Shown piece after piece: positions 10,540 to 45,136 of a stretch of 64,000 nt of DNA. The first letter of the stretch is position 1. Every line of letters begins with the position of its first letter. Position numbers and translations under genes: made by a program. A model generated the notes under the pieces. It was given only the letters and a program-made list of their open reading frames with translations. It was not told the origin of the DNA and made no database searches. The stretch is from positions 461,558-525,557 of the forward strand of contig OZ316891.1 of NCBI GenBank assembly GCA_973895155.1, in the 5' to 3' direction. This DNA comes from Marsupella aquatica (lineage: Eukaryota; Plantae; Marchantiophyta).

Positions 10540-10654
10540 AGTCGCCCCTAATTGTTTATATTTTCCTTGTTTTGTCCCTATACTAAGGTGTTTCTAGGGT
10601 GCACTCCTGCTTTACCTACTTAACTGGACGAGTGATTCCTGGCTAGGCATCACA

Positions 10655-17018: not shown

Positions 17019-17160
17019 AAAAGAAAATTAACCTACATACCATTTTTAGAAGCCTCACAATGTGTAGACAAATATGGAGACTTTAATTGGTGACCACATT
17101 CTGTGAGACCGAGAAGTATTTTAGATTGATATGAATAAATAGAAAGTCAAAGGCTGAATT

Positions 17161-20920: not shown

Positions 20921-21679
20921 GGGGGATCTCTCCGTGACAGCAAACAGCAAACAGTAAACAACAAACAGCAAACAGCAAAACTCATACCAGCAAATGTGCA
21001 CCCAAAAAAGACACCAAAGGGTATGAAAATATTGTCACATATATTGGACGTGAAGCGGCCATTGAGTACATTTATACTAGCGCCGGGCGCTATAAGGAAA
21101 ACAACCAAATAAAAACCTCTTTGAACTACCGGCTACAGTAATAGCGTCGGGCGCTACTCCAATCCGACACATCACAGTGTTCTTATTGAGTGTCGTCGTT
21201 CTCCATAAATGGGTAAATAAAACAAGGAAAACTAAAGACCAGATCCACAACCACCACTCGACTCTAAGCCCGATTCAGAACCGCTACTTTCTGATCTATC
21301 AGTGGACTCTGCTTCGTCGTCCACATACTTGGATTTTGCAATATCATCTACGAAGTGATTCTGCACAAACTTTCTATCTGAGCCTCTCCTGAGTCTAAGA
21401 CCCTTACTCTCCCAAGTAAGCGTCCTGACTGAATCTGCTCGTCGTGCCGCCTTTTCAGCATAAGAGGGGAGAACAAATGGCTTCTCCAGGGTCTGTACAA
21501 TGTTCCTAGAGATGTTCCTTCGAAGTTGAAAATGCCTCCAAAGATTCCACTCTGACCTGAGAATTTGAACTGGAGTTCTTTAGTCGAAGTCGGGAAATCG
21601 GGCGAATTTTCTAGACAAAAGGGAGTAAAGGAGTTTTTTGGAAAAAAGTATACAATGAGAGAAAGAAAGCTAAAGAAAA

Positions 21680-24600
21680 TTACTCTTCTGACTCTTCACT
21701 GTCCTCATCTCCAGATCCAAGGTCCACCACATTCTTTGACACCTCATCATCTTTAGATTGCTGAGAAGCATTTCCACCCTCATCCTCGTCTTCCAAATCA
21801 AAATTTAGAATAGCACGGAGCATGTCCTGCTTCTTACTTCCAGGAATCTTCTTAGGAGGAGTTGGTGCAACCACTTCTTTGTTCTGTAAAAGATTGAGGA
21901 AGACCTTACCGGAAGTATCAACAAACTCTGGCCGATTTTCCAGCCCAACAACAAAGCGACCAGAATAATCTCCAGCCACAAACATACTACCGGAACCTAC
22001 TGTCCAGTCCATAACGATATCTCCAGGAAGAGTCACCAATTCCAAAATAGTTTGCATGAAACCCACAGGCAATCGTGAATTTCCTGCAAATTGGAGCTCA
22101 GGAGTCGCGTCATGTCGCGGCAACGAAAACCCAATAATGTTAGTGACAGAAGGGTCTTCTTCATTCGATAGTGGCCGGAACTTGGGGTCTTTCGGGACCC
22201 TTCCCTTTGTCGAAATGCGGCAAAATATATTAAGAGTAAGTGTGAATATCTGCAACACAGTTTCCCAATGAAGGCAGTATAAGAAAACAGACACATATAT
22301 TAGCGCTTGGCGCTAGTCAACCATTCATCCTTACGAAAGATAAGTGAATTGTAGATATTGCGAATGCTGATAGTAGCGTCGGGCGCTAGTATGTGCAAGA
22401 CGAATTGTTACCTGAGTATCAGATCGGGGCCTATACATTGGTGTAGTCATGACCACATGGTGGGTTGAAATACACTGGAAACACTTAGAATCGTGGCAAG
22501 CCGCAATCACTTCAGATACCTGATCATAGTCTCCTCTGTGTAAAATTGCAAGTAGGCCATCGTCTGCAAGGAACGGCTCCATGGCTCGAAAGAAAGAGCT
22601 GGGAATAGTGTAATCCTGAAGGTTCCACTTGGGAACCTTCCGATCAAGAAGTGTTGGTTTTAATCCAGTGGGAATGTAGATGAAACCAGCATCCACACCA
22701 AAGCCCCTCTCTTTTCCGCCACGCATTACTCCCTTCTCTCTGTCTCCTGACTTTACCAATTCCTTTCCCCAGGCCTCAACTTTAGTAACCCACATGGGCT
22801 TCATCCCCTTGTTAAATACCGAATCGTAAAATTCGTTTAAATTGGACTCCACAAAACAGTGTCTAGAACACCTTCGCTTAAAATTCCCGACATCTCTCTG
22901 GAGTCCACAGGAAATAACGTCTCGAGTAGATGATGCTGCTTTGTCCTCACCGACGCCTCTCTTTTTCTTTTTCTTCGTGCTAGTTGCGTCAAGAGGGACA
23001 ATGGATTTGCCAGCACCATCCGGAGTCCCTTGATCCGGGGTTTCTTGAGCTCCAGTGTTTGCCTCCGATGCCTGAGGAGTTGCATCATTCTTCCCTTCGG
23101 CAGCCGGGACCTCCGTGTCGGACTTTCGACCTCCTGTTAGGCACAGAAACTTGAATGAGTCCAACCTTTCAGACTAGCGCCAGGCGCTATTAATCAAAGG
23201 AATTTCCAAATGAAACTCTTGCATAAGCAGCGCCAACAAGTAACCAAAAAGCGCTTAGACTACTCACTTTTCTTGAAGGACCTTGTGGAGTCACTTGGTG
23301 CAGCCGACTCATTCTTCGCCTTTGCTCTTGGCTTACGGCTTCGGTCAACGTGCATGACAAGAGACTCACAATTCTTCTGTAACTCAGATGCAGATTCGTC
23401 AACATCACACTGGAGACCTTGCTTCATTGCAGACACATAGTTGGCAGGGATCTGGGACTTCTGCAACTTCATGAAGGCATCCTTCTCAGCTTCGTCGAAT
23501 GGTAAATCTCATTTGTCTGTGTCGACGTACCACGGACAGTGAAGTCTCTCCCACTCCGACAATGAACGTGGTGGAAACTTTCCCTCCGCTGGGTACATCG
23601 AATAAAGGTCGGCAAGAGCGTCTCCCTCTTCGATAGACACCCATTTCTGAAATGCAGCCGGGTATGCCCACAGAGTGTCAGGAGATCTAAGCTCCATCCA
23701 CATGTAAAACCGGTATAGATATCGTTTGGCTCTCTTCCGGTTCCGCTCTGTGTAATCTTCCTTGTCCGCATATTTGGAAGGCCACAAGTTGTTGAAGAAT
23801 TTTGCCTTGACAAGATCCCCAAAGTTTTTGAATTCATCGAGAATGATCTTAAGCATGGCCTCCATTGACTCACACCCAGACTTTGTGAGACGATCAGCCG
23901 GCATCCGGTCAGAAATCTGTTTGAAAGAAGTGTGAAGCATTCCAGTTGCAATTCCCTCCACAGAATTCCAAGTATGCCATGTATGGCACCACTGCTTCAC
24001 AGGCTCATCGTTGACACTTGCAGGATGGAAAAACTGTTTCCGAATCTCGGGAGTGCAGTGGGCTACTAGAAGGGTGCACCTCAATTTTGGATCCAGGTAT
24101 GAAATAGCAGTAAACAACCTGGCTCGATCCATTGTGCATACAACTATGTCTGGCTTCTTCTCCCGTTTGTTCTTCTCAGTTACGGGATACATCTCAGCAC
24201 AGGTTCCCAAATAATCTCCAAAATCCGGATGAAGTAAAGGGGTGATCTTCGTCACCTTGATTGACCAATCTTTGGTCGCCTCCTTCATCATTGCCTCATG
24301 CCTCTTTGTGGTCTCCTCTTCTGACCAAGAAGCCCCTTGAGCTTTGGCTAAAGCCATATCAGACTTAAATTGATTTGAGTAAGACTTGATTTTGTCCACA
24401 CACAGAATGTAGATGAGAGCATCCTGTGGCATTTTATGTGTAAACCAAGACCCCTTTCTTGTCTTCTTTCGGATCGCCTCAAACTTTGCCATGTTCGCGC
24501 TGTCGATGAGTGGCTTATAGTGATCAAGATCACGCGACAGAATTTGGGAAATTCTGTCCGCGTCAAGAATCCAGGAAGGCTTGACAACTGCTTGTCCAAG

Positions 24601-27014
24601 CCTGGATGCAATGAAAAGGAATTAGTAGCGCTGGGCGCTAGCAAAAATTGGGGAATGAACACTTTCGCAAAGCATGTTTGGTCCAAAATGAATGACAGGG
24701 GTAACAACAGTTAACGAATAGAACTTACTGGTTCACGGTGTGCATTGCCGCCTCGAGCTCAACTAGCGAACCTCTGTCACCATTGAAAATGACACAAATC
24801 ACATGAGGATGATACTTCAAGTTGTCCGGATTCTCCCTCGTGTGACGATTGACCACGAGTATAATCGATGATTTCCGTCAAACACACAAAACATTTTATC
24901 TTTTAGAATATGGAATGCTGGGTCCGCATCACACTCTTCCTCAAACTTGTCATTCTCTGCGACCCAGATTGGATCCCAAGAGTCCCGGATCTCGCTGGTG
25001 CATATCTGAGAAACCCCATCGGCATTTGCAGGCTGAATGTAGAAAGGCATCCCAATGCACGAGTTGTACCCGGTGACACAGAATGATTCTTTCAACTTCT
25101 CGATCGATGCACTTTCTTTCTGTAAGGTTTGAACAACCTCCATGGGGAGCAATCTACAAAGAGGAATTCGAGGTGGCTCCTTATCGAATCCTCAAAAATC
25201 CTTCCCGAACGACAATGCGTGCGTTGATATTACCTCGTCTATCGATAATCCTATGTCACTGACTTCACCCATGGAGACGTCCTTAGGGTCCATTCTCCCT
25301 CTCCTCGACCTCGGGAAGGGCTGTGCAGATTCAGCTTTGGAAGTCGACAGGGATGCAGTCGATCGAGTGATGCGACGGGTGTATACTGAACCAGCAAACG
25401 AAGACTGAGAGGACTCAGAATGACCACCATCAGCCTCCCCCATTCTCGTATCACCCAGCCAAAAGTTGCCGTGGAGAGCGACTCGACCAAAGGCACTGTC
25501 GGACGCGCCGTGCAGTTCTTGTCACGATCACGTCTCAAAATGTACGGGACCAATAAAGGACGCACATACGCACTTGACAAACTCATACAGTCCGAGGTCT
25601 GAGCCCGTAGACGGACTAAATTATCCCAAACGAGCGATCTCCACCTCGTATTAAGACACCGATACATTGGAACCAGCCATTCGATTACAACGGTCCCAAG
25701 TACAGATGGCATTCTCCGATTGGACTTTCATCCCAGACAAAAGCAAAAAGGGTTCCGTGAACCTCAATCTACTATAATATTACCGTTGGAAAGTGACCGT
25801 TGGAACCACATCAGTGTCGGTAGTTGTGGATAGCGCCAGGCACTATTATACAACATACTTTCAAATGTATCTGAAAAACCGTCTTAATGTAGCTTCGGAC
25901 AGTACTATCAACACAAGTGTCTATAAATTTTCCAATTTTGTGGAGGAGTCGACAAGCCAACTTTAGTAGCGCTCGGCGCTAGTATTCAAATAAATGATGA
26001 AATCGGAGTCCAATGACAACAAACATGACCACATGAACCCATTCATTCAATGAATATTCCAATGAATTACAATAGCGCCTGGCACTATTAAAATGCACAT
26101 CAATTGAACAGACTTTGTTGAAATAAAAGTAAAAATAACTCCGAACGGGTCTGACTTGTGATTCCTTTCATTAATAGCGCCCAATGCTATCAAAAACACT
26201 TTACAGATACGACATGTCACGACAGTGTTACGGACACTTTGTTTGTCATAATAGCGCCGAACGCTAGTGAAAACATTGACAGCAGACGAGTGTTTACGGC
26301 CATTTCAAAGAAATAGATCAGTTTCGCATTCAGAAATACAATGCAAACACGGGAGTAGAACCCAAAATTAAAGCTTGGTCTTCTGAATTCAAAAGCATTG
26401 ACACCGGGGTAAAAACGAACGGCTGTGCCATTCATATACAAAATGTTACAATACACTAGAAATCCGGCATACGAGGAAGGAACAGTATGGGTTTTGTAAC
26501 GGAAAAAAACGAGTGGAAACAGATCCTATCAACCTCGATGGATCCTCCAAGTCTCTCTAGCACTCGAACGAGACGCTCTGACACCGGGAAATCAGTCTTC
26601 CCACCAACTTGGCTTGTACGCATCAAAGTCGTCATTCGAGTTGCTCGATCCATACCACGCAAATCCTCGCCTGCTCGGTGATGAGTCCCCGCTCGAAGAA
26701 CGATCACTCTCAGTGGATGAAGAAGATACGGAGACTCCTGTGCAGATAGTGTTGGCTCTTGGACGGCCGGCTGAAGTATGGGCGATATCCCTATCGGGAA
26801 CAGAAATCGGGCCGCTCGCATTTGGCCGACTGGATCCTTCGTTGCGTCCCACAGTTGGGGCATTCTTCATCTTTGAGATGAGTTTCCCCTTCTTTGAGAT
26901 TGGAACCGTCGTCCTCTCATCCCGAGGGGGTAAGCTATTTGATGCGGGGGTCTCCCGGTTGGTGTCACTCGGGACAAGTGCCTCCTCCTTTGCCTTCCCC
27001 CGTGGAGGTGCCAT
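21680..27014 (-). pseudogene. Multi-exon cargo gene: ParB/sulfiredoxin-like domain + helical region + beta-class amino-methyltransferase-like domain; nonsense and frameshift lesions; 5' end uncertain
   Basis: RIPLCRLLPMEVV...GY...FCVFDGNHRLYSW (ParB-like DGxHR). VDAGFIYIPTG...FLADDGLLAILH and RLPVGFMQTILELVTLPGDIVMDWTVGSGSMFVAGDYSGRFVVGLE (N6_N4-MTase-like SAM-binding region). GT-AG introns ~24602-24728, 23134-23247, 22251-22411. In-frame TGA at 25192 and 23509; frameshift at ~24835. Confidence 0.7.
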
Positions 27015-30000
27015 TGAAAGTGAACTAGGACGAGAACAAGAAGCGCGAACAAGAACGTGAAGGAGGACAACAGCGTGAACTAGGACAAGAATGAGAAACA
27101 AGGACGAGAAGGAGAACAAGAACGTGCACGAAAGCCAAAAAGAACAACTGGGCCCGAATGCGAGAACGGGAACCATGCGCCCGAAAGATGAGCCACAACT
27201 GCGACTCAGTAAAGAATGGCTTGACAATGAGGACATCGGAGGAGAACGACTAGATATAAGGAGAGTTCGCACTTGGTCCTGGCTGCCCACTTCGAAGAGG
27301 ACCCTCTGATATAACTTTCGTGGATGCTTCCTCTCTGACACATTTGGACCCGGGCGGATCGGATTCGCGAAGATCCAGTGGAGATCTTAAAGCGTGCCAA
27401 CTTAATGACTCGTACTGTACCGCGTTATCGTACTTATCCTTCCATTGAATGTTTTCAAGTCCATTGAAATAGGTAGCACCAGGCGCTATTATTTATTGCC
27501 TTCGTACTCCTCACCCAAGAATGTTTGCACCCAGAGGTAGCGCCAGGCGCTATTATTATTGGCATTCGTAGTCCTCACCCAAGAGTGTTTTACACTTAGA
27601 GGTAGCGCCAGGCGCTAGTAACTATGAACCCGAATCCTGCCGTTGGTAAGACGACAAAACGTCATTGATGGAGTGCGTCCAAATCTATAACGACTCTATA
27701 ATGAGAATGGAACGTTTACTTCTCATACTCGAATCTCATGATAAACATATTTCATTTCGCGTGGGGCAAATGCATATCCCTCTTTTGAAGCCATGGCTCA
27801 AAATATCGTTGTCACGAAGAAGGACACTCTGGATGTAATCACAATTCCCGTCCTCGAATCATCTGAATCAAAGCGTGTTTCAGAGGAATATTTGGAAGTG
27901 AGATTTGATGTCGCCAAGGAGTGTATTTTAGCAATCTCGTTAGTGTCGGTTTGTTTGGGGGAGACTCCAGTTTTCTACGATGTTGTTCATGGTCTAAGAT
28001 ATTGGACTCTAGAGGCTCAGAAAGAATATGAGGTTTTTGTTTTGAGAGATTCTGGGGCCTCCTATACTCGTCCTCCCACAGTGGCTGAACTCGATGTCAT
28101 TGAACTCTCGGAAAGTTCTGGAGATGATAAGCAAGCGACAACTACTCTCGGAGAGAAGATTCCAATTTACCCATCCGAGGTTAAAAAGGAGTCTAATGCG
28201 GATCGAGAAATGATTGTGCCTTTGACTGTGTACCGGCAGAGTGCAATGGATACAATCTTGAAATCCAAAGGTCATAGTGAATTGTCTCGGTTTATAAGGG
28301 GGAGTGATTTTGTTCATCACGTAGTGCCTAGTCTTCCCACATCTTACAATGGGAATGTGGTTTTTGAGTTACCCCCGGTAGACTGTGTGAACGCAAAAGG
28401 TGAACGTTTGAAAGATATGGATCGTGGTAAGGATTGTTATTATTGGACTCGGATTGTGAAAACGTCTTCAAATGTTCTTCCAAAGAAAATGTGGGATTTC
28501 AGGAAAGTCCAATGTACGGGATCGTTGCAGTGTCGAAATAATGTCTGTCCGTGGTGGAAAGACAACAAGTTTCAAAATAATGAGATGTGGGCAAGAACCC
28601 CAAAACTTTCGGGCCCATTCCAAGTTGGGGAATTGATCTTCGAAGGTGGAGTTGTTTGTCACCATTGCTCCGAACCTCCGATGTGCGTTGAGGCCTGCCC
28701 TGCTCTAATGTTCTACATGTATCCATTTGCAAAAGTTGACGTTAAGTCTTTGGCCCACATGTCGCGACTAGCTGTTCATATGGGATTTCACAATCATCCC
28801 AGTCGATGGGTCTTTTCGAGGGAGGCAGAAAAGGTTGCAAAGTCTCATCTGGAGAAGGGATTCACTGCAAACCCCATGGCATCCCCAGCAGGGATTAAAA
28901 ACTCTGCGACTGAGACACTGACAAATACATTTTGCGAGGCCTCTGTTGAAGAAATCTCTCTTGAAGAAGAGAAGGAAATCTGGGAGTCCCTGATGGTCAT
29001 CGCATCTCCTCAGAAGTTTGCATCCGTGTTAAGGAGTGTCCGTCAAGATCAGAAGGGGAACTGGAATTTCTTGTGGGGATGCAAAAGTGTATCCGACTGC
29101 CTTTTCTTCATAGGTTCTTGCTCCCTGGTCAAGGCTGTCAGGACGAGAGTGCTCATATCTTTAAAATGATCGTAAAAGGTGACAGTAGTGGTCTGGACCT
29201 GCTCCAAAGAATGAAACCTGGTGGGTCGTTAGAGGGTTCATGGGTAAGTTTTGACGTGATGCATCAAAGCATGGCAGATTGGCTTACTTTCAGTGCCCAT
29301 GTATATGATCATCATTACCGGGCACTTTGCACCATATTCACTTGTGAGCTAAAGGCCGAAGATGCAAAATCTCTGGAGAGAGCCTGGCGTTTGATGTTAG
29401 AGGTTGCCGATGAAAATGGTTTACAGGATGTTACAATTCGGGGATTCATGGCGGACAATGCTCAGGCTGGTTGGAATGCTGTTCGAAACGTGTTCTTTGA
29501 CGGTGTACCCGACCCAGAGCGAGAAAGATCAGATGCCTTTCATTTTTTCCAATCTTTTCATCGTCATTCCCGAGAAGGTGTAAAAGATGGAAAGCACGGA
29601 GAGCACAAGGAGATGTGGGATCGTCTTCGGAACGCGCCAACTTTCTTGAAAGCATATCAAATCTCTAGGGAAATCGATGACTGGTGGAGGTCTGGCAATT
29701 GTCACTCAGGCAAACTTCGGATGCTGCAAGGGTGGCTGTCTTGGTGGGTTGTCCGATGGAGACAATGGGGGAACTTCATAAGACTGGTGAGTTATACACT
29801 TCTCTAGGATGCATGTTCCCATTAATAGCGCTCGGCGCTAGTGAAGCATGTGTGAGATAGAAGGGTTCCTTATCTGCAATAGTAGCGCCGAGCGCTAATA
29901 ATCCATTTGGACTATGAGTGATGTAAGGACTACCTTTATTCTGTGTTAAACGGTTCTTTACATGGAAATATCATCATCAGTTTATTAGCGTCTGGCGCTA

Positions 30001-31546
30001 CTGTTATTTCCATTGTGTTGCCACTTTTGTGTGCAATTTCTTACATGTACTAAACCCTTGCGTGCAACGTTTCAGAGCAAGAGTGCCAAAGAGGTTGGGA
30101 TGATTCCTAATTGTACTGGTTTGGAATCTAGGCATGCTGGAATAAAAGCATGGCAACAAAAAAAAGGTTGGTCTATTTGAAGGATGTAAAACGGACCAAA
30201 ATAGAGCGGTTGCTCAAATTGCTGCTTATACTGCATACAAAAGGGGATTGAGCAGAGGAACTGGCCCAACTATTTTTGAGCTTGCCTTCAGATCGGCGGA
30301 CCTGGCGGGGTCACCGCGTCTCTTTGAGGAAGCCACCAATCTCCTCCTGTCGAACGCTGCTGAGTTTGATTTGGAAAGAAGCGTTCCATTGAATGGTGAT
30401 GTTGTAACTCGATCGGTGAAACAAAAAGGACATGCAACTGGGAACGTCTCGGCAGAAGACTCGCACAGGCATGATACCATCCTTGTTACTTCACCAAATA
30501 CAAAAGGTTTGAAAAGGAGAAACCTGCATTCCACTGATTTCGAGAAAATGCCTTCTACGCCTTCAGCCGGTGGAATTGATGCGGTCCATAATTTGTCAGA
30601 AAGCGATGCTTTTGAGGAAGTTGTGGTCATTGACACACCTCGCGTCGAGCAACAAGATCCTCTGTCCCACCAGTCACGCCTGCAAGACCTGTCGAGATTG
30701 CATATTGTCATTCAGTTTCCCCAATGGAAAGTGAAGTACCTCCCGGTGCCTGGCAGTTGTGTCGGACCTCAAAACGGGGTGCGGGTCCAGTGTGTAACGG
30801 AACCCTTGTTACGGGGAGGTAGTCGTGATGAATGTCAAAATCGAGTAAAGAAGGTTGGTCTTCCGAATCCAGATGGTGTTGTTGCAATTTCCGTGAGAGG
30901 ATGTAGAATGTTCAGGGGGCAACCTTATAACGATCAGATATGGTTTTGCCCCAACAACCACTGTCACCGAAGCACAACAAGGAGAGGAATCTCCAACATT
31001 CCCAATGTTCCTTCACATCTCCCAATTGCCAGAGGGACCAATCTTTCTGGAGCAGAGATTCAATTTTTGAAAGAACAAGGACTTATTCTCTCCGAAGGCC
31101 GTGGAGATGAAATTGAAGCACCGTTGCCTTCTGCGTTACGGATTGATGTCAATCTTTTCCCGGAGAGGATCAACCTAACTGACCCATTTGTGAGGTGCGC
31201 TTCAAGGAACGGGAAGAAATGCTTGCAAAGAGTGCATCTTACCCAAACACATTTGAAGAGAATTGAAGCCTCTGAAAAAGAAGTGATGAACGTCATTGGA
31301 GAGAGAGTGATCACGAGTGGAAATGCGTCGGGGAAACAGTTTTGTATCCGGACCCATGAACATGAGAGATCAGTCGCCTCTTATTGGGTTCAGATATGTT
31401 GTTTCCCATGTTGCTCTTGCGAGGATTTCTACCATCAACATACTTATCGGAAGCCTTACATGCCTTGCAAACATGTGTATTGGGTGTTCAAGAATATCAA
31501 CCTATTCATTAAAAGTGTATTTTCTTTTGTTCACAAATGAGTCTTG

Positions 31547-31625
31547 AAATGTACACTTTCATGTCCCCAAATGTACACTTCAAGACACCCAAATGTACAC
31601 TTTTGTGTCTCTAAATGTACACTTT
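31547..31625. repeat. Left subterminal AAATGTACACTTT repeats of the Sola-like element
   Basis: Four copies here; also at ~13582-13660 in the truncated copy. Confidence 0.8.
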
Positions 31626-31877
31626 ATAGGCCAAATCACATTAATATTATATTAATAAATAATACATATTATATTATTTAATAACTCACATAGAAATGGA
31701 GGATAAAAATTTATAAAGTTATTTCATCCCCATTTAAGGACCAGATATTCTGTGAACAAAATAACATCATTCCAAATAGATTATAAAATATCTTTATACA
31801 ATTATCTGCAAATTTACATTGAATACGAACATGTTTCTAGTACTATCCAAGGGGCTTAACACAAGTCAATTAAATAT

Positions 31878-33011
31878 CTAAACCAAGTGCTCCCTACAAT
31901 GTGTATTTGAGCATGTGCCCCTGTCTCCTTTCCTATCTACCCTATTGTCACGGTTGCAACTCACTTTATTTTCAGGGAGTTGAAATCTGGTGGTGTTGTT
32001 CCTAATGGCTATAATCTCCCGCAAAAAGTGTCTGGGATTTTCTCTATATGGACCTAAATAGTCCTTTCCTAAAAATGATTTAGCAAGTGAGTTGACAAGT
32101 GCATTGTCAAGTTCCACCTCAGGACGTAAACTACATATACGGTGCTTTACATTCCAAGGGATCTCATTACTGTTGAGGTCCAACACACTATGTGTAAACT
32201 GTGACTTCCAAATTTTTGCTGCAAATCTCTTGCTAAGTTGATCATAAGTAATCTCATTTTTTGCCTTGTCTCTCTTCATGTGCAAAAGAGACCACTTTGG
32301 AGAGTTGAGAAGAAGATAGCATCGAATGTCACTTGCATGTGATAGTTTCTCAAGACATGGCCAAAGAATTGCTAGAAGAAAATTATCTCCACGATTGGCA
32401 TGCGTGTAGGGCACTGGAAATAATCCGGTCATGTCTGGGTTGGCAAATGCCTTAAGGGGGGAGTCATCCACAAGGAGGGTGTTGGTTTCATCATATAGAT
32501 TTCCAAATGCATTCCATACCACCTGAAAATCCTTCAGTAGCACATTTGCCTTTCCGTTTGTAATGTCACGCCTTTGAATGCCTATGTCAAAGGCTTCCAC
32601 CTGTGTGAATACAAACTTAAGTTTCAACCGCTCCTCAACAGTGAACATCATGTTCAGCATTTTCACTGTTCGTTCTACCCCAGCACAAGTCCAAATTGCA
32701 ACGTCAAATCTGTCAAAAACCAACTTTAGAAACTCATGGAGCCCTGGTCGTTCTATATACATGCGACTAATACCATTTTTTCTATCCCAATGCACTCCAC
32801 TTGAGGTGACAATATTCCTGGATGTGCCCTTGTTTTGGAATTCAATAGAATCCCAAAGTATTTTATTAAGGTCCAAAATCAGCAACTTCCGCTTGACGGG
32901 ACCAGGTCTCGATTCTGCAAGTGCACCAAACACCATTCTCAGAGAAAAGACCAAAAGTGAACTTTGGATTAGGATTGTCTCAGTCCAAAAATACAACACA
33001 ATGGCTGACAA
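31878..33011 (-). CDS. FCP1/SCP/NIF-family HAD phosphatase-like protein (cargo), open ORF; true start may be downstream (MVFGAL)
   Basis: KRKLLILDLNKILWD, ERPGLHEFLKLVFDRFDVAIWT, LLKDFQVVW, NTLLVDDSPLKAFANP are NIF/FCP1-domain motifs. DxN replaces the canonical DxDxT. Confidence 0.8.
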   Translation of the reverse strand: MSAIVLYFWTETILIQSSLLVFSLRMVFGALAESRPGPVKRKLLILDLNKILWDSIEFQNKGTSRNIVTSSGVHWDRKNGISRMYIERPGLHEFLKLVFDRFDVAIWTCAGVERTVKMLNMMFTVEERLKLKFVFTQVEAFDIGIQRRDITNGKANVLLKDFQVVWNAFGNLYDETNTLLVDDSPLKAFANPDMTGLFPVPYTHANRGDNFLLAILWPCLEKLSHASDIRCYLLLNSPKWSLLHMKRDKAKNEITYDQLSKRFAAKIWKSQFTHSVLDLNSNEIPWNVKHRICSLRPEVELDNALVNSLAKSFLGKDYLGPYRENPRHFLREIIAIRNNTTRFQLPENKVSCNRDNRVDRKGDRGTCSNTHCREHLV

Positions 33012-33153
33012 AAACGAAAATTAACCTACATACCGTTTTTAGAAGCCTCACAATGTGTAGACGGATATGGAGACTTTAATTGGTGAGCCCATTCTGTGAG
33101 ACCGAGAAGTATTTTAGATTGATATGAATAAATAGAAAGTCAAAGGCTGAATT

Positions 33154-36100
33154 TCATTCCGAAATAAGAGATCCGTATTCATCAATAATCATGTCAGCAC
33201 CAAGCTCCTGTTGGATTTCAAAATTGACATCTGAAGTACTTTGTTCTACCCAATAAGGAGAAGTCCAAACAGGAGTTATGAACCCCAATTCTCCCCTCTT
33301 ATACTCCTCCTTATTGAGAATTGAAGGAGCAGCTTCCAATGATATTTCTTGGCCTCGATTTGGCCCACTTTTCCACACGTAACATCGTGCGTCACGTTCC
33401 AATGACCTCCATCCAGTTGATCCAACTCTATTCCCTTTCTTTTTTGAGAACGGAAGGACAACAGGACTCCTCGAGTGTGAACGAACGAACACCAATTTGT
33501 CATCAGAAGCTGAAAAGAGTGTGTCAGGACAAGTTGAAGCACCTGCCTGGTTGTCAGCAGCCGTTGATGCATTTCCTCCTGGATTGATGGGAATGTCAGG
33601 CAATCCGCCGGCTTCCCCACGAGTCAATTCGTTAGTTTCAGCTTCATTTGAATCTCCAAGCCTCGTTGCGCCTTCGTTGATCAGATTGGTTGAAGAAAGA
33701 TGATCAAACATATCAACCCTTGCTCCTTCCAGTTGCTCCATCTGTCCTCCCGGCGTTGTTGGATTGGGATCATCCTTGTCCAAGTTATCATCAACTTGAA
33801 CTTCATGGGGCCCCGGAGGGATGTCATCTAAACCAGATGAACGGTTTGGTGCAAGTCCAATATCATCATCTACATCGTAAGGCTCACCTTGACCAACACG
33901 GTCATCCAAATTTTTGACATATGCCTCGTCTGATGCCTCTACGCCTTTAGCCACTTTGTCAGCAACATCTTCAGACTCAGAACCGTCGGATTCAACAGCG
34001 ACAGCTACAGCCGCAATAGTGGTAGCCCATTGTCGAGAATTTTCAGCAAGTGATTCACAATGGGCTTTAAGTGAGGGAACTCTCTCGCAAAGGTAGGAAG
34101 CAAAAGCTTCCACAAAATGCCTCTCGGACTGAGAGTCACAATAAACAAAGCATTCCCTATCGCAAAAAAATGATGTCTTCATGACTTGGCCACCGGAGAA
34201 AAAATCTAGAACCAAATCTCCCGGTTCTGATAAGGATTCAATAATCCTTCGGATCATCCGCGTGGGTTTGGCATGAGGATTAACCCATCCTCCGCGACTA
34301 CCAACTGTCTCAAATCGAGGGGCCATATTCATAATCTTGACGGCCTCTTCCGGGTCCAAAACCACTTTTAGGTCGTCGTTTTGTGTCCCCTCATCTGATT
34401 CCTTAGCTTTCCCCTTTCCCTTGTCGATCTTGCATACTTCATAATCAACATCCTTTGAAGTATACAAGAATTTTGGCTTTGGATAGTTGGGCTTGAAAAC
34501 TTCATTCCAATTGACGTCTTCATCTCGAGAAATCCCTGCAAAGATAACTTCTTCAATCCCTCCACCCCAACATGAGTCATGAGGGTGCGGTTGATCATCT
34601 CGTGAATAACTCCCATACTCAATGTGAATGGTCAAAGCTTTCTCTTGTCCCAATTTACGAAGGGCACCATGGACATTCAGTGCAAGTTGTCCAGGATGAA
34701 CTGTTATCGTCACCACAATCGTGGGATTTTGTGGAAGCTCCACAATGTATTCAAAGAGAACAAGAATCTCTGCTTCAGTCCACTGTTTTTGTGGAAGCCG
34801 GCTAAAATCAACAATGGCAAGAGGGCAGGTCGGAGGAGCTTCTTGCAATGACTCTGGATCAATGGTCTTCATGAGATTGTCGCTAAAAAATGTAACCCAT
34901 GGTAGGGTCCGAGAACGTGATCCTCCGCCAAATCTCTGGCAGTATATATCATCTAGGCGGAATACCAATGCCGTCGGCAAGATTGCGCTCTCCCGCGTAT
35001 GATTTGGCTTTAAAAGGTTGGCAAGATAGACCTCGCCAACGGCTCTTCGACACCTGCTGAACTCTGAATCAATTGCTAGCGTAGGAAGAACCTCAACTAC
35101 TTTCCCCCAATTAGTATTTGTCGGGAAATTCACCGCATCCTTGGTGCAATAGTAGTCTTCAATAAGGGACTTGAGTTTCCGCACGATCTTCACATCTTTG
35201 GCCAACTCCTCTATAGATGGCATGTCTGATTTATTAGAGGCATCTTTCTTTAGCAATACCTTTCCTGACTTCACCCGCGTCAGTATTCTTGTGATGTCTC
35301 GTTGTGAGATCAACTCACCATCAAAACAACGAAACATGGCAACAGTAATTGCTTTTTTAGACTTCTCATTTCCTTCTACACCAGCTCCATCGGGAAGTTT
35401 CCCATCCAACCACAATTGGCATACCAAACTCCATAAATCAAAAAGAGCATTGTCGGCAAACAGTAACCAGTAGACATTACGACAATCTTTCCTTCCCATG
35501 GTCATTCTTGCAAGAGCCAACCAATCCTACAATTGCAAAGGAAAGTCTGTTAGTTCTCCATAACTCAATTGTTTGAAAGCACTCAGGTGCGGACTGAGAC
35601 CATCCCAGTCCAACACAGAAGTAGACAGTATCAGTGGAAATATTATATTGAATGTGCATGATTTAGTTTGGACTAGGACCATCCCAATCCAAAACAAAAC
35701 TAGACGGTATCAGTGGAGAAATATTCTACTGAATGTGCATGAATCCATTTGGACTGGGACCATCCCAGTCCAACACAAAACTAGACAATATCAGTGGAAA
35801 TAGTCTATTGAATGTGCATGAATCCATTTGGACTGGGACCATCCCAGTCCAACACAAAACTAGACGATATCAGTGGAAATATTCTACTGAATGTGAATGT
35901 ATCCATTTGGACTCGGACCATCTCAATCCAAAGCAAACTTGAAGCTTTGTGGTCAAAGACTACCATCTCAATTGTAATCACACATGGAGAGTCTACGGTA
36001 TTGTACCAATCAAGCAGTAACACTTCATACCTGAAATTTTTGATTGTCTTGAGCGTTTGTTTTGTTGTCCCCATGTTTTGGCCGGCTAGGTTTTCCACAT

Positions 36101-38287
36101 TCCACAAATTGCCGCCTAGCATGAACGACTGTATCTTTGAAGCATGACTGAAACACCATCGTGCTATTGATAGCATTAGATCGCATTGAATGCTCAACTA
36201 ATATTGATGATGGTGTTCGATGAGATAATATTCTTGACTTTCGAAATTCCAGCTTTTTTGCCAATGCTGTTAGCTTGGCATCCTTGTTTGCCCATTCTCG
36301 AATCCATCTGGCTGCTCTGGCTGAATGTTGACCGCTAATGGCAAGGAATTGAACCTCCCCCTTTTTCACGGCTGCTACAAAGTCCCTCCTATCTGATTCC
36401 GTGTTGTCATATTGCATTAGGTTTCTATGTTTTGTAGTGTAAGGAATCAAGTCTGCTATGTGTGGTTCATGCCCCGGATTTCTTATCATGGAATTGGCCA
36501 CCTCCTTTACATGGTCTGCATTCAACATTCTGTAACAGAGTCTTGCCGACGCAGGGAAAATACTCTCTACGGGAATAGAAAATATCGAATTGATCCCAAA
36601 CGTATAATATTGCTCCATTTGTTGTAGTACCTCATTACCTTCTAAGACCTTCTTCTCCTCAGGAGCGTCCAACTGCTCGTCCATATCTTGTGAATGCACT
36701 GTCAGGTTTTCTGTAGTGTCATCCATGATGACACTGTCAATTTTCTGTTTCTTCTTTTGTCTTGGCCTCTTTTCACTTGCACTTGGCTTCTCAACCGGAC
36801 GTTTCTTCTCAACTGGCTTCTCAACTTGGCTTCTCGTACTCGGCTTCTCAACTGGCTTCTGAACTCGGCTTCTCGTACTCGGCTTCTCAACCAGCTTCTC
36901 AACTGGAAGTTTCTTTTCAACCGGAGGTTTCCTTTGGCTTTGTTTTTGTTTTCCCACTGCTCTTTGAGAGGTTGCTGCTGTAGTTCCCGCGGTCTCTGTT
37001 GTAGGTTCTGGAGCTTTCTCTGGCGCCTTCTCGGGCACAGGGTTTGTATTCACCGTTGGAAGGTTTCTCGTCTTTGACAAAGATTCTATCCATTGCTTTG
37101 CTTTGACTAAATCAAAGTTGGGATCAAATGCAACATCCTTATCAATTAAAACACCAGGCTCCTCTGACTCCAACGATAACAATCCAACTTTCTCAAGTAA
37201 ATTGCTTAACGTCCAAGTAGTTGCAAAAGAGAAATTGCCTTGGTGCTTCATCATGTTGAGTTTCAAATATTGAAACCCATACATAATGTCGACTGGAAGC
37301 ATACCAGTTACCCCGATGACCAACTTCTTTGTGTCATATGTCTTTGGAAAAAATCCCATTGACAAAACGCTCAATTCACCACTTGCGTGCCATTCGACAT
37401 TGAATTCTGAGGAGTATGCCTTTGACATAAGGTTAACTTTAACCCAGCATGACCTATCGTGCATCTCCAGAATGACCGAATTCATCCCTCTCCCTCCAAT
37501 GCCAACAGAGACCACAGGTCCGCAAACCAAAGTCAGGCTATCATTTGCTCTGCACTTTAAGGTCAAAACAGGTTCAATCGTGCTTGATGGCACTTCATTA
37601 TTAAGCGGGGTTCTTGAGAACTCAAGCCCCCATCGGAAGCCTGGGGATCTCTCATCTAGTAAGAATCCGTCCCGGCAGTCGGTCGGTGCAATCGCGGGTT
37701 TGAAACCAACAAGATCGCTCCCTGCATCATAAAAACATCATCCATGTTAGACTTATTAAGTTTAAAACATTTGAATAACTCTTGTTGGATTAGGATGGTC
37801 CTAGTCCAACTTGAGATGGTTTTAGTCTTGCTCCTACAATCGAGATTCAATCTCCTGGATGGATTAGGATCATCCGAGTCCAAGTTTGGATTGGGATCAT
37901 CCGAGTCCACGTTTGAATTAGGATCATCTGAGTCCAAGTTCGGATTGGGATGGTCCGAGTCCAACTTTGGATTGGGATCATCCGAGTCCAACTTTGGACT
38001 GGGATCATCCGAGTCCATGTTTGGATTAGGATCATCTGAGTCCAAGTTCGGATTGGGATGGTCCGAGTCCAAGTTTGGATTGGGATCATCCGAGTCCAAC
38101 TTTGGACTCGGATGGTCCCAGTCCTCTAAGACTTAGGGAGGATAGGTGATGGATACTTACTAGGGATTCTTGATTGAAATTGTTTGGAGTCTTCAAGTGC
38201 CAGTTCTACACTGTCGCTCATAGAGGAGAGGTCAAACTCCTCTGTTGCTTCCACGGAGGACTGCACAAGGACGCGATTCGCTTCCAT
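33154..38287 (-). CDS. Cargo gene, predicted 3 exons (38287-38161, 37721-36031, 35526-33154), ~1,396 aa: ParB-like domain fused to a beta-class amino-methyltransferase-like domain
   Basis: GT-AG junctions give a continuous frame (RIP-R|SDLVG; QKFQ|DWLALARM). IPVESIFPA...RMLNADHVKEVANSM...FLAISGQHSARA is ParB-like; NPHAKPTRMIRRIIESLSEPGDLVLDFFSGG is N6_N4-MTase-like. The DPPY position reads LAIVDFSR. Confidence 0.72.
35590..35930. repeat. ~80-bp repeats containing TGGACTGGGACCATCCCAGTCCAA in predicted intron 2 of the Sola cargo gene
   Basis: About five copies of the same core as the 27-bp arrays, in reverse orientation. Confidence 0.75.
37790..38122. repeat. 27-bp tandem array (GGATTGGGATCATCCGAGTCCAAGTTT-like) in predicted intron 1 of the Sola cargo gene
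   Basis: About 10 direct units; gives the spurious LDSDDPNPN-repeat ORFs. Confidence 0.88.
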
Positions 38288-39344
38288 CTTTCTGACACGT
38301 GGCAGAGTGACACGTGGCTTCTTAGCAGGCGTCCGATTTAGGGCAATGAAAAAGAATGGAGGTGGAGGCGGAAGCAGGCAGAGGCGGGGAGGCGGAGAGC
38401 AAAGAGCGAGGAGAGCGAGCGAGTGAAGGCAAAGAGCAGAGAGCGGAGGCGGAGAGTGGAGAGCGTGAGCAGAGTGAGGAGCGAAAGAGTGAGAATGAGA
38501 ATGAGGTCCTGGCTGGACCTCTCCGTCCCTTTACCCCCTCCTGCCTCACCCCGGCCTGCGTACGGCCGGTTGCCTCCTTCTCCTACGTACGGCCTGATAG
38601 TGCGTACGGCTTGCTCCTGCGTACGGCCCGTTGCCCGCACCCTGCATACGGGCCTCCTTCCTTGATGTCCTGCCTACCTAACAGCCTTGCACGGTAGTCC
38701 CCGCGCAATTAGGCTCGTGAAGATAAGGTGTGCCGCAAGCTAAGGTGAAGGGGTACTCAACCCTTATCTTCACGCGATTTCCGTTTGAGCCGACTCGAGC
38801 AAAGGGTATATTTCGGGAGACGCCCACTTCGGAGCTCATTCTTGTTCTAGTTTCCCAAATCTAAGCTCCATGTAATCCGGAGTTTCTCTTAAAGTGTTAT
38901 GTATTGAGCCACTTACCTTCAATGGGTCAGCTTAGCCAGCTTCTTGACTTTTGGGGTCCTCTCAGTTTATCTTTTACAGACATGTGTGGTTTAGGGTTCA
39001 GTTTGTTTTTTACTCCCAAGATTTAGTGGCATATAGCTTGTATTTCAGGGTTCTGGGAAAGTTTTTACCAATCTACAGACAACAATGTATCCCCCTTGGA
39101 TGTGATATTCATATTCTACCAGATCTTAATACTAAGGTGAGTATAAGGTTAACGCATTCAAATATAAGGCTAGGTTTCATTATTTCATGAAACTGTATGT
39201 AGACATTAGGGTCTACCTTAAGACCACGCAAACTTTAGGCTACACCATATAGGGAGATCCGTAAAATACGGAGTCTTCCTAAATTTGGAATTTTCTTAGC
39301 TTAAAATGTTTGAAGTTTATCTCCCGTTACATTATGGGTTGGTC

Positions 39345-40100
39345 TAGGATGGTCCTAGTCCAAGTTTGGATTCAGATGTGGACTAGGATCATCCGAGTCC
39401 AACTTTGCATTGGGATCATCCGAGTCCAACTTTGGATTGGGATGGTCCGAGTCCAAGTTTAAACTTGGATGGTCCAAGTCCTAGTTTGGATTGGGATGGT
39501 CCGAGTCCAAGTTTGGACTTGGATGGTCCAAGTCCTAGTTTGGATTGGGATGGTCCGAGTCCAAGTTTGGATTAGGATGGTTCAAGTCCAACTTTGGATT
39601 GGGATGGTCCGAGTCCAAGTTTGGACTTGGATGGTCCAAGTCCTAGTTTGGATTGGGATGGTCCGAGTCCAAGTTTGGATTAGGATGGTCCGAGTCCAAC
39701 TTTGGATTGGGATGGTCCGAGTCCAAGTTTGGACTTGGATGGTCCAAGTCCTAGTTTGGATTGGGATGGTCCGAGTCCAAGTTTGGACTGGGATGGTCCC
39801 AGTCCAAATCCAGAATCGGAGGATCGTACTCCAAATCTAGACTCGGAGGATTCCAGTCCAAATCCGGACTCGAATGGTCCCAATCCAAATCCATAATCGG
39901 AGGATCGTAGTCCAAATCTAGACTCAGAGGATTGCAGTCCAAATCCGGACTTGGATGGTCCCGGTCAAAATCCGGACTCGGATGGTCCTAGTCCAAATCC
40001 AGAATCAGAGGATCGTAGTCCAAATCCGGACTTGGATGGTCCCGGTCCAAATCCGGAATTGAAGGATCGTAGTCCAAATCCAGACTTTGAGGATCGCAGT
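39345..40100. repeat. 27-bp tandem array (GGATTGGGATGGTCCGAGTCCAAGTTT and variants) upstream of the Sola transposase ORF
   Basis: More than 20 direct units between a GTGAGT donor (39137) and a TGCAG acceptor (40153). Confidence 0.88.
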
Positions 40101-40168
40101 CTGAATCAAAATTTGCATGACTTTGGTTGTAATCCATTTTTTTCAGTGTGCAGGATAATAGGAAAAGG

Positions 40169-43100
40169 ATGTCTCAAAGGTTTTCTAGGGGCGATGATGT
40201 GACCTTGACAATGGATGGTTACGACGTTGGAAATGGGACAGTTCAAAAGACAGATCCGCAAGAGAGTGTTCAAAATATTGTGCTGGGAGAGAATCGAATT
40301 GGGGTTCTCATTGAGAAGGCCTTTGGTGAGACCAGGAAGCTCGCTTTTCCAATGCCTAGGGCGGAAAATCTTCATGATGCCATTGACTCATGTGTCATTT
40401 GGGATATGTCATGTGCATATCGATCTGCGGATAAGATTACTCAAAAACGCATCAGTATTGGTAGTTGTTCGACTCGAAAAGATAACAACATCCATAATTC
40501 TGCAAATGTACAGGAGGATGCTTCGACCACCCTAAGGCCAGGTGATGAGGTTGAAATGTTTATCTCTGGCCATTGTGTGGCCTTTGGAGTTGTTTTCAAC
40601 ACTGATCCAATGGAGAGATGTCATAACATATTACTCGGTGAGTCTCGGGTTAGTGTAAAAATCACAGATGTGATTCATGGTAGTAAGACTTTACCTTACG
40701 CACATGGTGGAGCTGCAACAATTGAAGAGGCAAAGGGCTCCTGGGTTCTATGGGATGTGGCTGACGTCCACAATAAAGTATGGAATGTTGATATCGATGG
40801 GAGCAACAAATCTTCCTCTAAGAAGCAGAAGGACAAGGCGGATTTTGTTTCACAGTCTTGTTCGGCAAACACCACAGACACTAAGTGTGACTATTTTCAT
40901 CGGGCAAACTGGATGTCAGAGTTGGTTGAACTCTACACTGGTTTGGATCGAACCAAAATGGTTGCCACGGGAACGATCACTGTCCCTCAAGTGATGGCGG
41001 CAGTTGATGATGAAATTCTTGGTGATGACCATGTTGGGATTGCTGTGAAAGATGTCGTGGCAGCACAATACTTTCCCAACATCCACAAGGGAGTAGTGAG
41101 TTTGATTCGATGGCGGATTGATTCAACAAAACTAGTTGCAAATGGAAAATTTTTGTCAGATATTTTGGTGGAAGGTTCTGAAAGGATGGACTCAATGGAT
41201 AGGGATGAACTCAATGCGGATGTAAGTGATAGAGGAGTACTGCGTTCAAGGCCCTACAATTTTAACAAGAGGAATCAAGTAGATCCAAATGAAAAGAAGA
41301 GGAGGTTGTTGGAAACCAAGGCAATTTCAAAAACAACAGAGGCGTCAATTGATGACGTGAAAAGAGAAAATTGTTGCAAGCAAAAATGTTGTCTCATTAT
41401 GCCAAGGGAAAACATCGAAGATATTAGGATGGAATTTCATGGGATGTCAAGCGAGTCAAAAACGTCACACATTTTCAACCTCTTTCACTATAGAGAGGAT
41501 GATGTTCGTGATAAGGGACACCATGTTCTTAAGGGTATGGTCGTATGCAGACATGCATTTGCAATTATCCACGGTTTTAGCCACACCAAATATTATGATT
41601 ACAAAAGGAGATATGTGGAGGGTTGCAAAATTGGGTTCCATGGCAATACGGGCTTGATGAAAACAAGGGCAAATACCTTGCATGCACGAGCTCTGTTGGA
41701 GGCTTTTTTGACTCGAAATGCAGAGCCCATGCCTCATATGCCTTATGGAGGGGCACATGGGACAGACTCTATTGAGTACCGTCTTCCGGCGTGTTACAAA
41801 AAGCTAGAGATTCTGGAAGATGTGAGAACAAAGATGAAGGAAGAAGGGCTTCCTCCTGTCACAGAGAATACTCTCTACAAGATCTGGAGTAACTCATTTG
41901 CAAACTTCAGTTTTCATAAAGATGGTGCATTTGCCAAGTGTACTCTTTGTTGTGAATACAAAGACAGTTTGATGCGAGAAAGAAGGAAAAAAGAACGTGC
42001 TGAAATTGAAGAAAAATGAGCGCAACATCTTCGTGAGCAAATGTCACGTAGATATGTTTACTACGCTCATCGAGTGATGGCCAAACAACACCCAGGAGAA
42101 TATCTTTGCATTATTCACGACAAGATGGATCAAGCAAAGACATGGATTCCAAAAATGGTTAGTACTCCTAAATCTCTTTCGGGTCATGGAATGCCGCTAC
42201 CTATTGCTCTCACAGGGATGTTGACCCACGGGAGGGATCCAGGAGTTTATGCACACTTTAGTGTCACTGGCCTTTGGCCAGGAGATGCCGATTTCACGGT
42301 GACATCCTTGGCTAAGTGTCTTCGAGACCTTGAAGAGTACAATGGAGACAAGACAGGTGACATGTTGGATGGCCTTCATTGGGAACCTCACAGACCTTTC
42401 TTTCAAGCCCTACTTGACTTTGAAGCATTTTTGACGGGTTATTTGGAACCAAAGAATATACCGGTGAATAGGTATATTGGTTCTGAAGATGGAGCTGAGA
42501 GTCGGACTGAGACCGTCCCAAACCAGCAAGATGAGGATGATGGAGAAGACATGCAAGGAGAGCAAGGCAGTCCATCGTTCAAGCCCTTGCCAAGGCACCT
42601 AACATTGCAGATGGATAATTCAGCAAAGGACAACAAAAACCAGACTGTCATGGCATTTTGTAGCGAGCTTGTGAGTAGAGGAGTATTTGAAACTGTTCAA
42701 ATGTCTTTTCTAATGGTTGGTCATACGCATGAAGATGTTGATGCACTCTTTTCAAAGGTATCATATCAAGTTCAGCACAAAGAAGTTGCAACCCTCCTTG
42801 CTCTTATGGCAGAGGTATGGGAATGCGAGAGCATTCATCCAGTTCCCAGATTGATACAAGAAGTTGCATCTTACAAAGAATATCTTCAAACTTTCAAGGT
42901 GAAAGATATTCAAGGTCACTCAAAACCTGTATCATTTCTTTTCTCTATGAGAGATAATGTACCAATATTTCAGTATAAGTCCCATGTAAAGCAAGCTTGG
43001 GCTCCACTTGGTGGAAGGTGCATTTGGGCAACAGATCTGACAACAAATTCTCTTCTTTTACCAAGTGGAGAGCCCTTAGCTAAATCCATTGGAGAGATAT

Positions 43101-43930
43101 ACAAAAAATCTGAAGAGATTATCCCATTTCTTAACAAGTACCTTGATTTTTTGAGAAGGAGTTGCACTGATGAGACATCTATAGCATATAAGGAAAGATT
43201 TCCTCTTGTGAAATATTGGGAGAGAATTGTGGAGTTGTTGACAAATGGGCTCGCACTAGAAGGGGAGGGAAGTACTCAATTTCCCTTGGAAAACAGATTT
43301 TGGCCTAAGACTAACCACGGCACTGGTTACAAGGTCAACCAACCGGAACAAAGTGGTCCTCCAAGTGAAGATGAGGAGAATGCAGAGATGACGGCTCTTC
43401 AAAATGAGGTCTTGGAAGAGATGGAAGATCAGGCAGCACCATTTGTTGGATCTCGAGCTGAGAGAGAACAAGGACGATGGATTCCTTTACAAGATATTTG
43501 TGAAGGAAACTTTGTATTTCTTCGACCCGAGGATGACTGGGAGAATAAAAATGGTGGAGGTCATTTCTGGTTGGTGAGAGCTTTGGGTTTGGTGGACCCA
43601 AAGCATGAAGTCCCAACTACATCTTCAACAAACCCTTCTCTGCCTCGACAGTACGCTCCAATGTTCCCAGTTGAATGGTGGAGGCCTAAACACTCTAGTA
43701 AACTTGATGTGACTGAGAGTGCGCGGTATCTAAATTGTTTCATGTCCACTAAGACATGGGAACGAGATCCAGGGTTTGGTGAGAATACTCAACATTGGCA
43801 GTATGCAAATTCTGCAATGTATGGTTTTAAATCTGGAATGAAAGAAGAAAACATGGCAGGCAGAGGTTTGAAGATCCCTCGAAATGTTCTACAAACTGTC
43901 CAAAATTATCTTCAAAGGATGGACAAGTAG
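40169..43930 (+). CDS. Sola1-like DDD transposase (~1,250 aa) with three N-terminal Tnp1/En-Spm-like repeats; one in-frame TGA at 42017-42019
   Basis: The 623-aa and 629-aa ORFs are in frame (EEK*AQHLREQMSRR). Motifs KCTLC, IIHDKMDQ, LTGMLTHG, LQMDNSAKDNKN, FLMVGHTHEDVDALFS. Three repeats of V..G.V...DP....LG...V.V.I..V.....LP.......W. Confidence 0.8.
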
Positions 43931-44182
43931 ACTTAGTTGTTAGAAGCTATAATAATTAAATAGATAGTTACTAGTTTTTATGTAACTAAGATAGTCACTC
44001 ATTCAAACATAGTAATTTATGTACTAGTTATTTACTATTCTAATAGTTTTAATGTGATACTATCTCCTCATTTTCTAAACTTTTGATCATTATAAATATG
44101 AATGTTTGCTTTTTCTACATAATTAAAAATGTTTTTCTATTCATTCCTTTCTTTTAAATGATTATAATAAGAGTTGGTAGGC

Positions 44183-44510
44183 AAATGTACACTTTTTAGG
44201 CCAAATGTACACTTTATTGCACTAAAAGTTACACTTTCTAGACCAAATGCACTTAAATGTACACTTGTTAAGCCAAATGTATGCATTTTGCACTCAAATG
44301 TACACTTTCTAGGCCAAATGTACTCAAATGTACACTTTTAAAGCCAAATGTATCTATTTTGATGTTCAAATTTACACTTTTCATTGCCCAAATGTACACT
44401 CTTTAGGCCAATTGTAAACTTTTCTATCCCCAAATGTACACTTTTCATTGGCCAAATGTACACTTTTCCAAGCCCAAAAGTACACTTTTCACTGCCCAAA
44501 TGTACATAAA
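44183..44510. repeat. Right subterminal AAATGTACACTTT array of the Sola-like element
   Basis: More than 12 copies at ~21-bp spacing immediately inside the right TIR. Confidence 0.85.
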
Positions 44511-45136
44511 TCAAATAATAATACACTTTTAATGAATAGGCTGATGAATGTGTTCAAACTGGATGTGCTCGAATCGACATTATGTAGCCAGCCAATTCTA
44601 ACATTGGGAGAAGTCCGTTACATACTTGATAGGCAGTTGGGAACGAGAACGTAGACTGTTGCTTGATCGTTGAACAACTACAATTGTAGTTTGTCTTTTC
44701 TAACGGGCAGAAGTGTGAGTTCTTAAAGTGTTGTTTTTTTGTATAATACTATACTAGCGCCGGGCGCTAGTATTGTATGACTTTGTTTCGACTTCATATT
44801 TCGTGGCAATATATTGGAGTCCTTGTGTAAAATCGTCGATAAATTTCCTCTAATGTTGTACAATGGTGGGACCCACCATAATATTGTCCACACAATTATT
44901 GCATATATGGACGCTACATACCGTGAAGAGAAGAAACTAAAATGCATACAAGAAAAAAAATACTCATACAAGAAAACAGAAACTCATACAAGAAAACAGA
45001 AACTCGTACGAGTAAATAGATATGCTCATACGAGGAACTTGTTTACTTGTACGAGACAAAATTTTGCTTGTACGAGGCAAAATTGGCTCGTATGAGAATA
45101 TCTATTTACTATTTGCTAGCACGGTGGTTATACCCC

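Follow-up and report, generated by a model that had tools for sequence, protein, structure and literature searches.

A palindrome dispersed through the non-coding DNA of a liverwort Mutator-like transposon as a candidate loading site for its ParB-like cargo protein

The liverwort Marsupella aquatica carries, on contig OZ316891.1 of assembly GCA_973895155.1, a Mutator-like DNA transposon whose non-coding DNA contains many copies of the palindrome TAGCGCCNGGCGCTA. We analyzed a stretch of 64,000 nucleotides around this element (positions 461,558 to 525,557 of the contig), which we call the window and whose own numbering is used throughout. The element spans 20921..45136 and is approximately 11.2 kb long without a second transposon nested within it. 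Its ends, GGGGGAT.. and ..ATACCCC, start with G and are related yet imperfect, and its left end (20921) interrupts, at 20920, a further copy of the cargo gene that the nested element carries. Mutator elements duplicate 8-11 bp of target DNA on insertion, and a matching target-site duplication was looked for at the ends of the large element and not found. Two divergent genes are present, which encode an accessory or ‘cargo’ protein (minus strand) and a transposase (plus strand). The transposase gene (27793..31497) is frameshifted, and its last 36 codons (44544..44654, plus strand) lie beyond the nested insertion. The element is a decayed copy.

We take the transposase to be of the Mutator type from an HNH-type zinc finger, a D..D..E arrangement, a CxH-like motif and a SWIM finger; a Pfam search with this protein gave no match, including to the MULE and SWIM families. 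It is 45% identical to part of a gene model from Riccia sorocarpa (P0038, KAL3676455.1). In that model the 45%-identical transposase stretch is joined to part of a cargo, which hints that the two genes are adjacent in Riccia as well. A short serine-rich open reading frame (ORF) that begins MAPPRGK (26592..27014, minus strand) is either an upstream exon or a separate small gene, and none of the 122 proteins tested is a homolog of it.

When up to two mismatches are allowed, the palindrome matches 17 times in the window, where 0.07 matches are expected and none of 100 shuffles reaches 17. An eighteenth copy in the Mutator-like element, at 26175, carries three mismatches. The approximately 18 copies listed in an earlier note on this DNA, along with all of their coordinates, proved to be right. 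At three mismatches there are 22 matches in the window (0.67 expected), which comprise the original 17, the copy at 26175, two in a small neighboring element (45503 and 45525) just past the span given in the earlier note, and isolated matches at 335 and 59286, no more than chance would give. The remaining 53 kb of the window holds no match at two or fewer mismatches, and an unbiased count of spaced palindromes places the TAGCGCCNGGCGCTA word at the top rank in the element. A pattern scan of metagenomes at one or fewer mismatches returned 118 loci, of which 117 have one copy and one has two. None of these has a BLASTN match to the window, and we regard them as chance matches.

The pooled-strand consensus is WTAN-TAGCGCCNGGCGCTA-NTAW. 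The palindrome described earlier therefore stands, but its stated length of 15 bp does not, because the conserved site is longer. Position ±8 is paired in just four of the 18 copies, and position ±9 is A or T in 29 of 36 half-sites, a pattern that suits base contacts by a protein dimer rather than a stem. Each of the 16 deviations from the consensus is a C>T or G>A change, a bias that the earlier note had described as holding for most variants, and 12 of the 16 fall in the inner CC/GG. Except for one tandem triple with a 64-65-bp repeat and the two terminal copies, the sequences that flank the palindromes are unrelated, which indicates that the palindrome is neither part of a tandem repeat nor a miniature inverted-repeat transposable element (MITE). 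We rejected a hairpin or MITE origin on the basis of these flanks and of the ±8/±9 pattern. Spacings between copies show no significant helical phasing (best p 0.08 among five periods).

It is very improbable that no protein is dedicated to reading these copies, so that they would be footprints, splicing signals or mini-repeats that form hairpins. Three of them did arise by local tandem duplication, and intronic palindromes can fold in RNA. However, a 7-bp arm around a one-base center makes a poor stem, the ±8 positions do not pair and the ±9 positions are conserved, the flanks differ, some copies lie outside predicted introns, and Rfam returned zero matches.

None of the 18 palindromes resides in a predicted exon, although exons make up about 69% of the element and non-coding DNA only 31%. 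With approximate exon boundaries, this avoidance has a p value of 7e-10, or 3e-5 if the copies are counted as nine clusters, and by our own arithmetic the value becomes approximately 3e-4 once the TAG stop contained in the motif is allowed for. The earlier note likewise saw no copies in exons or in the nested element. Five GT-AG introns with compatible phases are predicted, four in the cargo gene and one in the transposase gene. Among the cargo introns (minus strand), 22250..22411 (phase 0) carries palindromes at 22301 and 22374, 23134..23267 carries one at 23175, and 24602..24728 carries one at 24626. The first and last of these junctions are without gaps in the alignment to the Riccia sorocarpa homolog P0090, and many unspliced homologous ORFs begin near the 24602..24728 boundary; the 23134..23267 junction is located in a low-complexity linker, beyond the reach of the homolog test. 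The transposase intron (29787..30075, plus strand, phase 0) carries palindromes at 29826, 29883 and 29986. The fourth cargo intron (21683-21557, minus strand) has no copy, and the exon that follows it weakly matches the C-termini of four homologs (best E 3e-4, 122 sequences). As a result, the claim that every predicted intron carries the palindrome was too strong.

Other copies flank or separate the genes. Two (21078 and 21142; 21078..21156) are left subterminal and downstream of the cargo gene, and three lie between the divergent genes at 27474..27617, where a 64-65-bp unit is duplicated in tandem. The rightmost copy (44755..44769) is approximately 100 bp past the transposase stop codon, where the left end recurs in inverted, degenerate form. 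Five more (25831, 25967, 26073, 26175 and 26252; 25831..26266) are upstream of the cargo gene in what had been presented as its first intron. This region is indeed non-coding, but its status as an intron is not borne out: homolog alignments of the cargo end at 25440 and none extends further up, and so these copies may sit in a 5' untranslated region intron or in an intergenic spacer.

The same upstream region provided a view of how the motif fares among other members of the family, which is represented by many variant contigs in all four sequencing runs, from three organisms. This comparison covers positions 25790-26300 only, with contig ends often falling inside motifs, and yielded 74 differences. 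Among the 40 that are listed, 38 are outside the five motifs and two are inside (26084 and 26185). Both of the latter shift this copy's deviation toward the consensus, at 90-100% of depth in the runs that cover them. Put another way, among the listed differences none of 62 consensus motif bases is changed, versus 37 of 436 other bases (Fisher p 0.006). In run X1, the listed differences at 10% or more across the whole 25790-26300 stretch include one C>T, outside a motif, and zero G>A. Conservation of the motif among family copies is thus supported for this one region and for the differences listed.

A second set of palindromes is present in the nested DNA transposon (31498..44543; 13 kb), which interrupts the transposase gene near its end and encodes a DUF7869 transposase, a NIF-like phosphatase (31878-33020; PF03031, E 2e-15) and a methylase-like cargo. 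This transposon had been labeled a Sola element. Sola elements make a 4-bp target duplication, and the CA..TG ends and 2-bp AT duplication found here do not agree with that label; presumably they fit EnSpm/CMC better. The nested element carries a distinct 25-bp palindrome of its own, for which the window gives 40 matches (38 of them in this copy and two in a second copy), a number that is partly circular because the pattern was itself derived in this analysis. Five and 11 of the 38 reside in two predicted cargo introns, 20 are upstream of the transposase gene, one is upstream of the NIF-like gene and one is in the cargo ORF, such that 37 of the 38 are outside predicted exons. The 25-bp palindrome is absent from the Mutator-like element and the 15-mer is absent from the nested one. 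The nested cargo also matches PF01555, its N-terminus gives no alignment to the profile of the first cargo family, and between the window's two cargo proteins similarity is limited to the surroundings of methylase motif I. Separate AAATGTACAC repeats are found at both ends of the nested element. The second, truncated copy of this family (13528-20920) is 96-97% alike, is cut at 20920 by the Mutator-like element, and is interrupted by a long foldback (14449-16170 versus 18796-20536).

These arrangements bear on the possibility that the transposase itself binds the palindrome, for end recognition and self-activation, and that the cargo is unrelated to it. Three copies are within 400 bp of the element ends, in the degenerate inverted repeat. 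Two more degenerate copies (45503 and 45525) are at the center of a gene-less 331-bp element (45353..45683) that has ends related to those of the Mutator-like element and an 8-bp target duplication, and that resides in retrotransposon-like sequence. Furthermore, the transposase of AtMu1c binds copies of its own family and lowers their methylation. AtMu1c and TnpA work at termini, however, whereas 15 of the 18 palindromes here are separated from both ends by more than 1 kb, a dispersed layout that the earlier note described as unlike the usual subterminal transposase sites. The extreme, subterminal ends of both the Mutator-like and the nested element, where transposase sites usually lie, are instead filled by other short repeats, and the same layout of internal palindromes accompanies an unrelated type of transposase, together with a methylase-like cargo, in the nested element. 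We therefore consider binding by the transposase unlikely.

Even less probable is that a transcription or chromatin factor of the host binds the palindrome and that the family collected such sites for its expression. Non-coding placement and retention would suit a site for any protein. The motif, though, does not recur at two or fewer mismatches in the rest of the window (53 kb), and the nested element has a different palindrome, which points to readers that are private to each family.

The best candidate for such a reader is the cargo, a predicted protein of approximately 1,200 amino acids with a ParB/Srx-like domain, a helical domain and an N4/N6-methyltransferase-like domain. All of its exons are on the minus strand. 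Exon 24729..25521 encodes a low-complexity N-terminus and the ParB/Srx-like domain (IPLCRL...DGNHR...AMH), and this copy of it has a single stop and a single frameshift; other family copies have a 2-base gap at 24840. Exon 23268..24601 encodes the helical domain and has an in-frame stop at 23509-23511 in this copy, where other family copies differ at 23509. Exon 22412..23133 encodes a linker and the N-terminal half of the methyltransferase-like domain, exon 21684..22249 encodes its C-terminal half with a motif I-like DWTVGSGS, and a last exon is predicted at 21232..21556. A HMMER search found 87 homologs, and two word-based searches of longer proteins found none. Liverwort homologs share the same order of domains, and residues 66-1072 of the spliced cargo align with R. 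sorocarpa P0090 at 26% identity (E 4e-77), with two exon junctions gapless. The helical domain has a confident helical model in homolog P0024; a single-sequence fold of the exon itself was unusable (predicted local distance difference test score, pLDDT, 40). Pfam scans of the cargo exons and 24 homologs found no plant-transposon family.

A GxxR motif of the DGNHR type is the nucleotide-binding motif of ParB/Srx domains, and is followed by a downstream helix that carries an asparagine. DGNHR is present in the window protein and in 12 of 15 aligned rows, with an AMHNLN-type helix downstream. In the VIA fold comparison the top four of 22 rows are Noc, ParB and pNOB8 ParB proteins, and the Noc match, although weak in score, covers 202 of 203 residues with the DNA-binding part included. 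The ParB exon found no match among Protein Data Bank (PDB) sequences or phages, a profile search of the PDB returned low-complexity matches only, and Foldseek gave no significant match. The ParB-like assignment of the earlier note thus holds at the level of a motif and a weak fold match, but that note missed the methyltransferase-like domain.

Exon 21684..22249 matches PF01555 with 28.8 bits (cut-off 26.7) and also matches phage methylases, and five of 27 homologs carry PF01555. Like beta-class N4/N6 methyltransferases, of which Marchantia DN4MT1 and rotifer N4CMT are eukaryotic cases, the domain has motif IV ahead of motif I, and it aligns with five phage or virus methylases. The catalytic motif is defined as [DNSH]PP[YFW] (PMC4738411). 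In contrast to that class, the aromatic residue is found in none of the 26 ungapped rows (seven of 33 rows are gapped): 22 read D[LM][PS][ST], two read Y[IL]PT, and two are misaligned or truncated. The window copy has YIPT instead of DPPY, with Y in place of the first D. This family-wide degeneration of motif IV suggests that the methyltransferase domain is probably inactive.

Nevertheless, the cargo might bind the palindrome for some other job, such as compacting or pairing DNA for transposition, guiding insertion, or writing a self-mark of N4-methylcytosine (4mC) or N6-methyladenine (6mA) through a non-canonical active site. Such roles share the evidence for binding presented here, and the gene-less element retains two palindromes. 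In 22 Riccia rows motif IV retains its first acidic residue, and the S-adenosylmethionine loop region is conserved; published accounts describe raised 6mA on retrotransposons with prokaryotic adenine methylases (10.64898/2026.05.21.726589) and 4mC in Marchantia sperm (10.1101/2021.02.12.428880). Against this, the catalytic aromatic residue is missing and the first D is replaced in this copy, and placement in introns and between divergent genes suits gene regulation at least as well as the pairing of ends. We judge these other roles rather unlikely.

We tentatively favor, at somewhat less than even confidence, a reading in which the palindromes are family-private loading sites of the cargo protein that work like the anti-silencing system of VANDAL elements. 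The earlier note's reading of them as loading sites for a dimeric protein is partly supported. In Arabidopsis, VANDAL21 and VANDAL6 are likewise Mutator-like and carry an accessory gene (VANC21 or VANC6) and a short family-private motif, partly in tandem; VANC21 binds its motifs in introns, intergenic DNA and terminal non-coding regions (PMC5735166). There are also differences. VANC motifs are 8-9 bp, non-palindromic and in one orientation, whereas the site here is a 15-21-bp palindrome that is mostly single and dispersed; the accessory protein here is ParB-like and methylase-like; and binding and hypomethylation were shown for VANC (PMC5735166), where here they are proposed. By inference the cargo works like VANC, without being established as one.

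As in the ParB/parS, Noc/NBS and VirB systems, the site is palindromic, the protein has a GxxR-type motif, and its N-domain and following helices give a weak fold match (structures 6sdk and 7ol9). The length of parS is similar to that of the palindrome. Unlike bacterial ParB, the cargo is eukaryotic, predicted to be spliced, approximately 1,200 amino acids long and carried on a transposon, and no ParA gene is present among the element ORFs or family matches. The system is not ParABS and probably does not include an active methylase. We rejected true chromosome partitioning, given that ParA is lacking and that a chromosomal insertion has no need of it. A ParA-free precedent is Shigella VirB, a ParB-family anti-silencer that depends on cytidine triphosphate (CTP) (PMC10653881). 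In our proposal, a cargo dimer would read the two half-sites of a palindrome. By analogy with ParB and VirB, CTP binding would then close a clamp and permit spreading from each site, so that a handful of short sites could suffice for the whole 11-kb element. The methylase-like domain, with its catalytic aromatic residue missing family-wide, may serve as a binding or recruiting module, and the outcome would be anti-silencing or activation, like that of VANC on VANDAL. The element would thereby likely recognize its own family and keep its copies from being silenced.

Four observations weigh against this proposal. The fold score of the ParB-like domain is weak, the sites in this copy show C>T decay, palindromes are kept in an element that has no genes, and a Mutator transposase alone has been reported to anti-silence its family, though at termini.

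The closest precedent for the cargo domains comes from red-algal Plavaka elements (EnSpm), where PAG2 has a PF01555 methylase domain and PAG3 a ParB-like N-domain (10.1101/2025.02.11.637652). The available text of that preprint proposes Plavaka inverted-repeat arrays as PAG3 sites and places homologs on Chondrus Mutators. There each domain belongs to a protein of its own, with SET and 2-oxoglutarate oxygenase partners, and tandem arrays lie beside PAG3; here the domains are fused, motif IV is degenerate, sites are distributed over both genes, and the homologs named come from liverworts. The pairing of a ParB accessory gene with inverted repeats has therefore already been proposed, and our gain is a sharper, more testable case and not a first proposal. 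New here are the land-plant Mutator, the ParB–pseudo-methylase fusion and the two nested orthogonal systems. A literature search that covered few subscription journals found nothing on a land-plant (liverwort) ParB-methylase cargo family or its palindrome.

Fungal Starships also carry a conserved accessory gene, DUF3723 (10.1101/2021.12.13.472469). The nearest Atlas neighbors of residues 140-320 of P0024, its ParB-like segment, are fungal DUF3723 clusters (0.96) and a cnidarian cluster, at 0.95-0.96 overall. No Pfam DUF3723 match was found by hidden Markov model, which leaves this link as a lead only, and the word ‘ParB’ is absent from the available text of the Starship DUF3723 paper (10.1101/2021.12.13.472469).

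Elsewhere in the window, a small element at 8374-9669 has inverted arms and 24-bp subterminal tandem repeats. ORFs at 2865-13530 are presumably a Gypsy-type reverse transcriptase and integrase, with a duplicated long coiled-coil ORF, and we take 55420-55875 to be a probable host exon similar to the beginning of a plastid glutamine amidotransferase.

Few plant transposons have been shown to protect themselves through accessory proteins that recognize specific sequences (VANC and TnpA). If the cargo does read the palindrome, an unrelated protein fold would have reached the same cis layout, and a bacterial-type, CTP-dependent sliding clamp would be at work in a plant nucleus. More speculatively, and on balance doubtful, several eukaryotic DNA transposon superfamilies may share a bacterial-type module in which a CTP-driven ParB clamp loads at a private palindrome and slides, coupled to a swappable chromatin effector (here a pseudo-methyltransferase). 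In that case the window, from a land plant, would hold two orthogonal copies of this module, nested in one another, and DUF3723 of fungi would be this same clamp. With two proteins and two palindromes, the window offers a specificity pair, and the system could show what DUF3723, a gene common in Starships, does.

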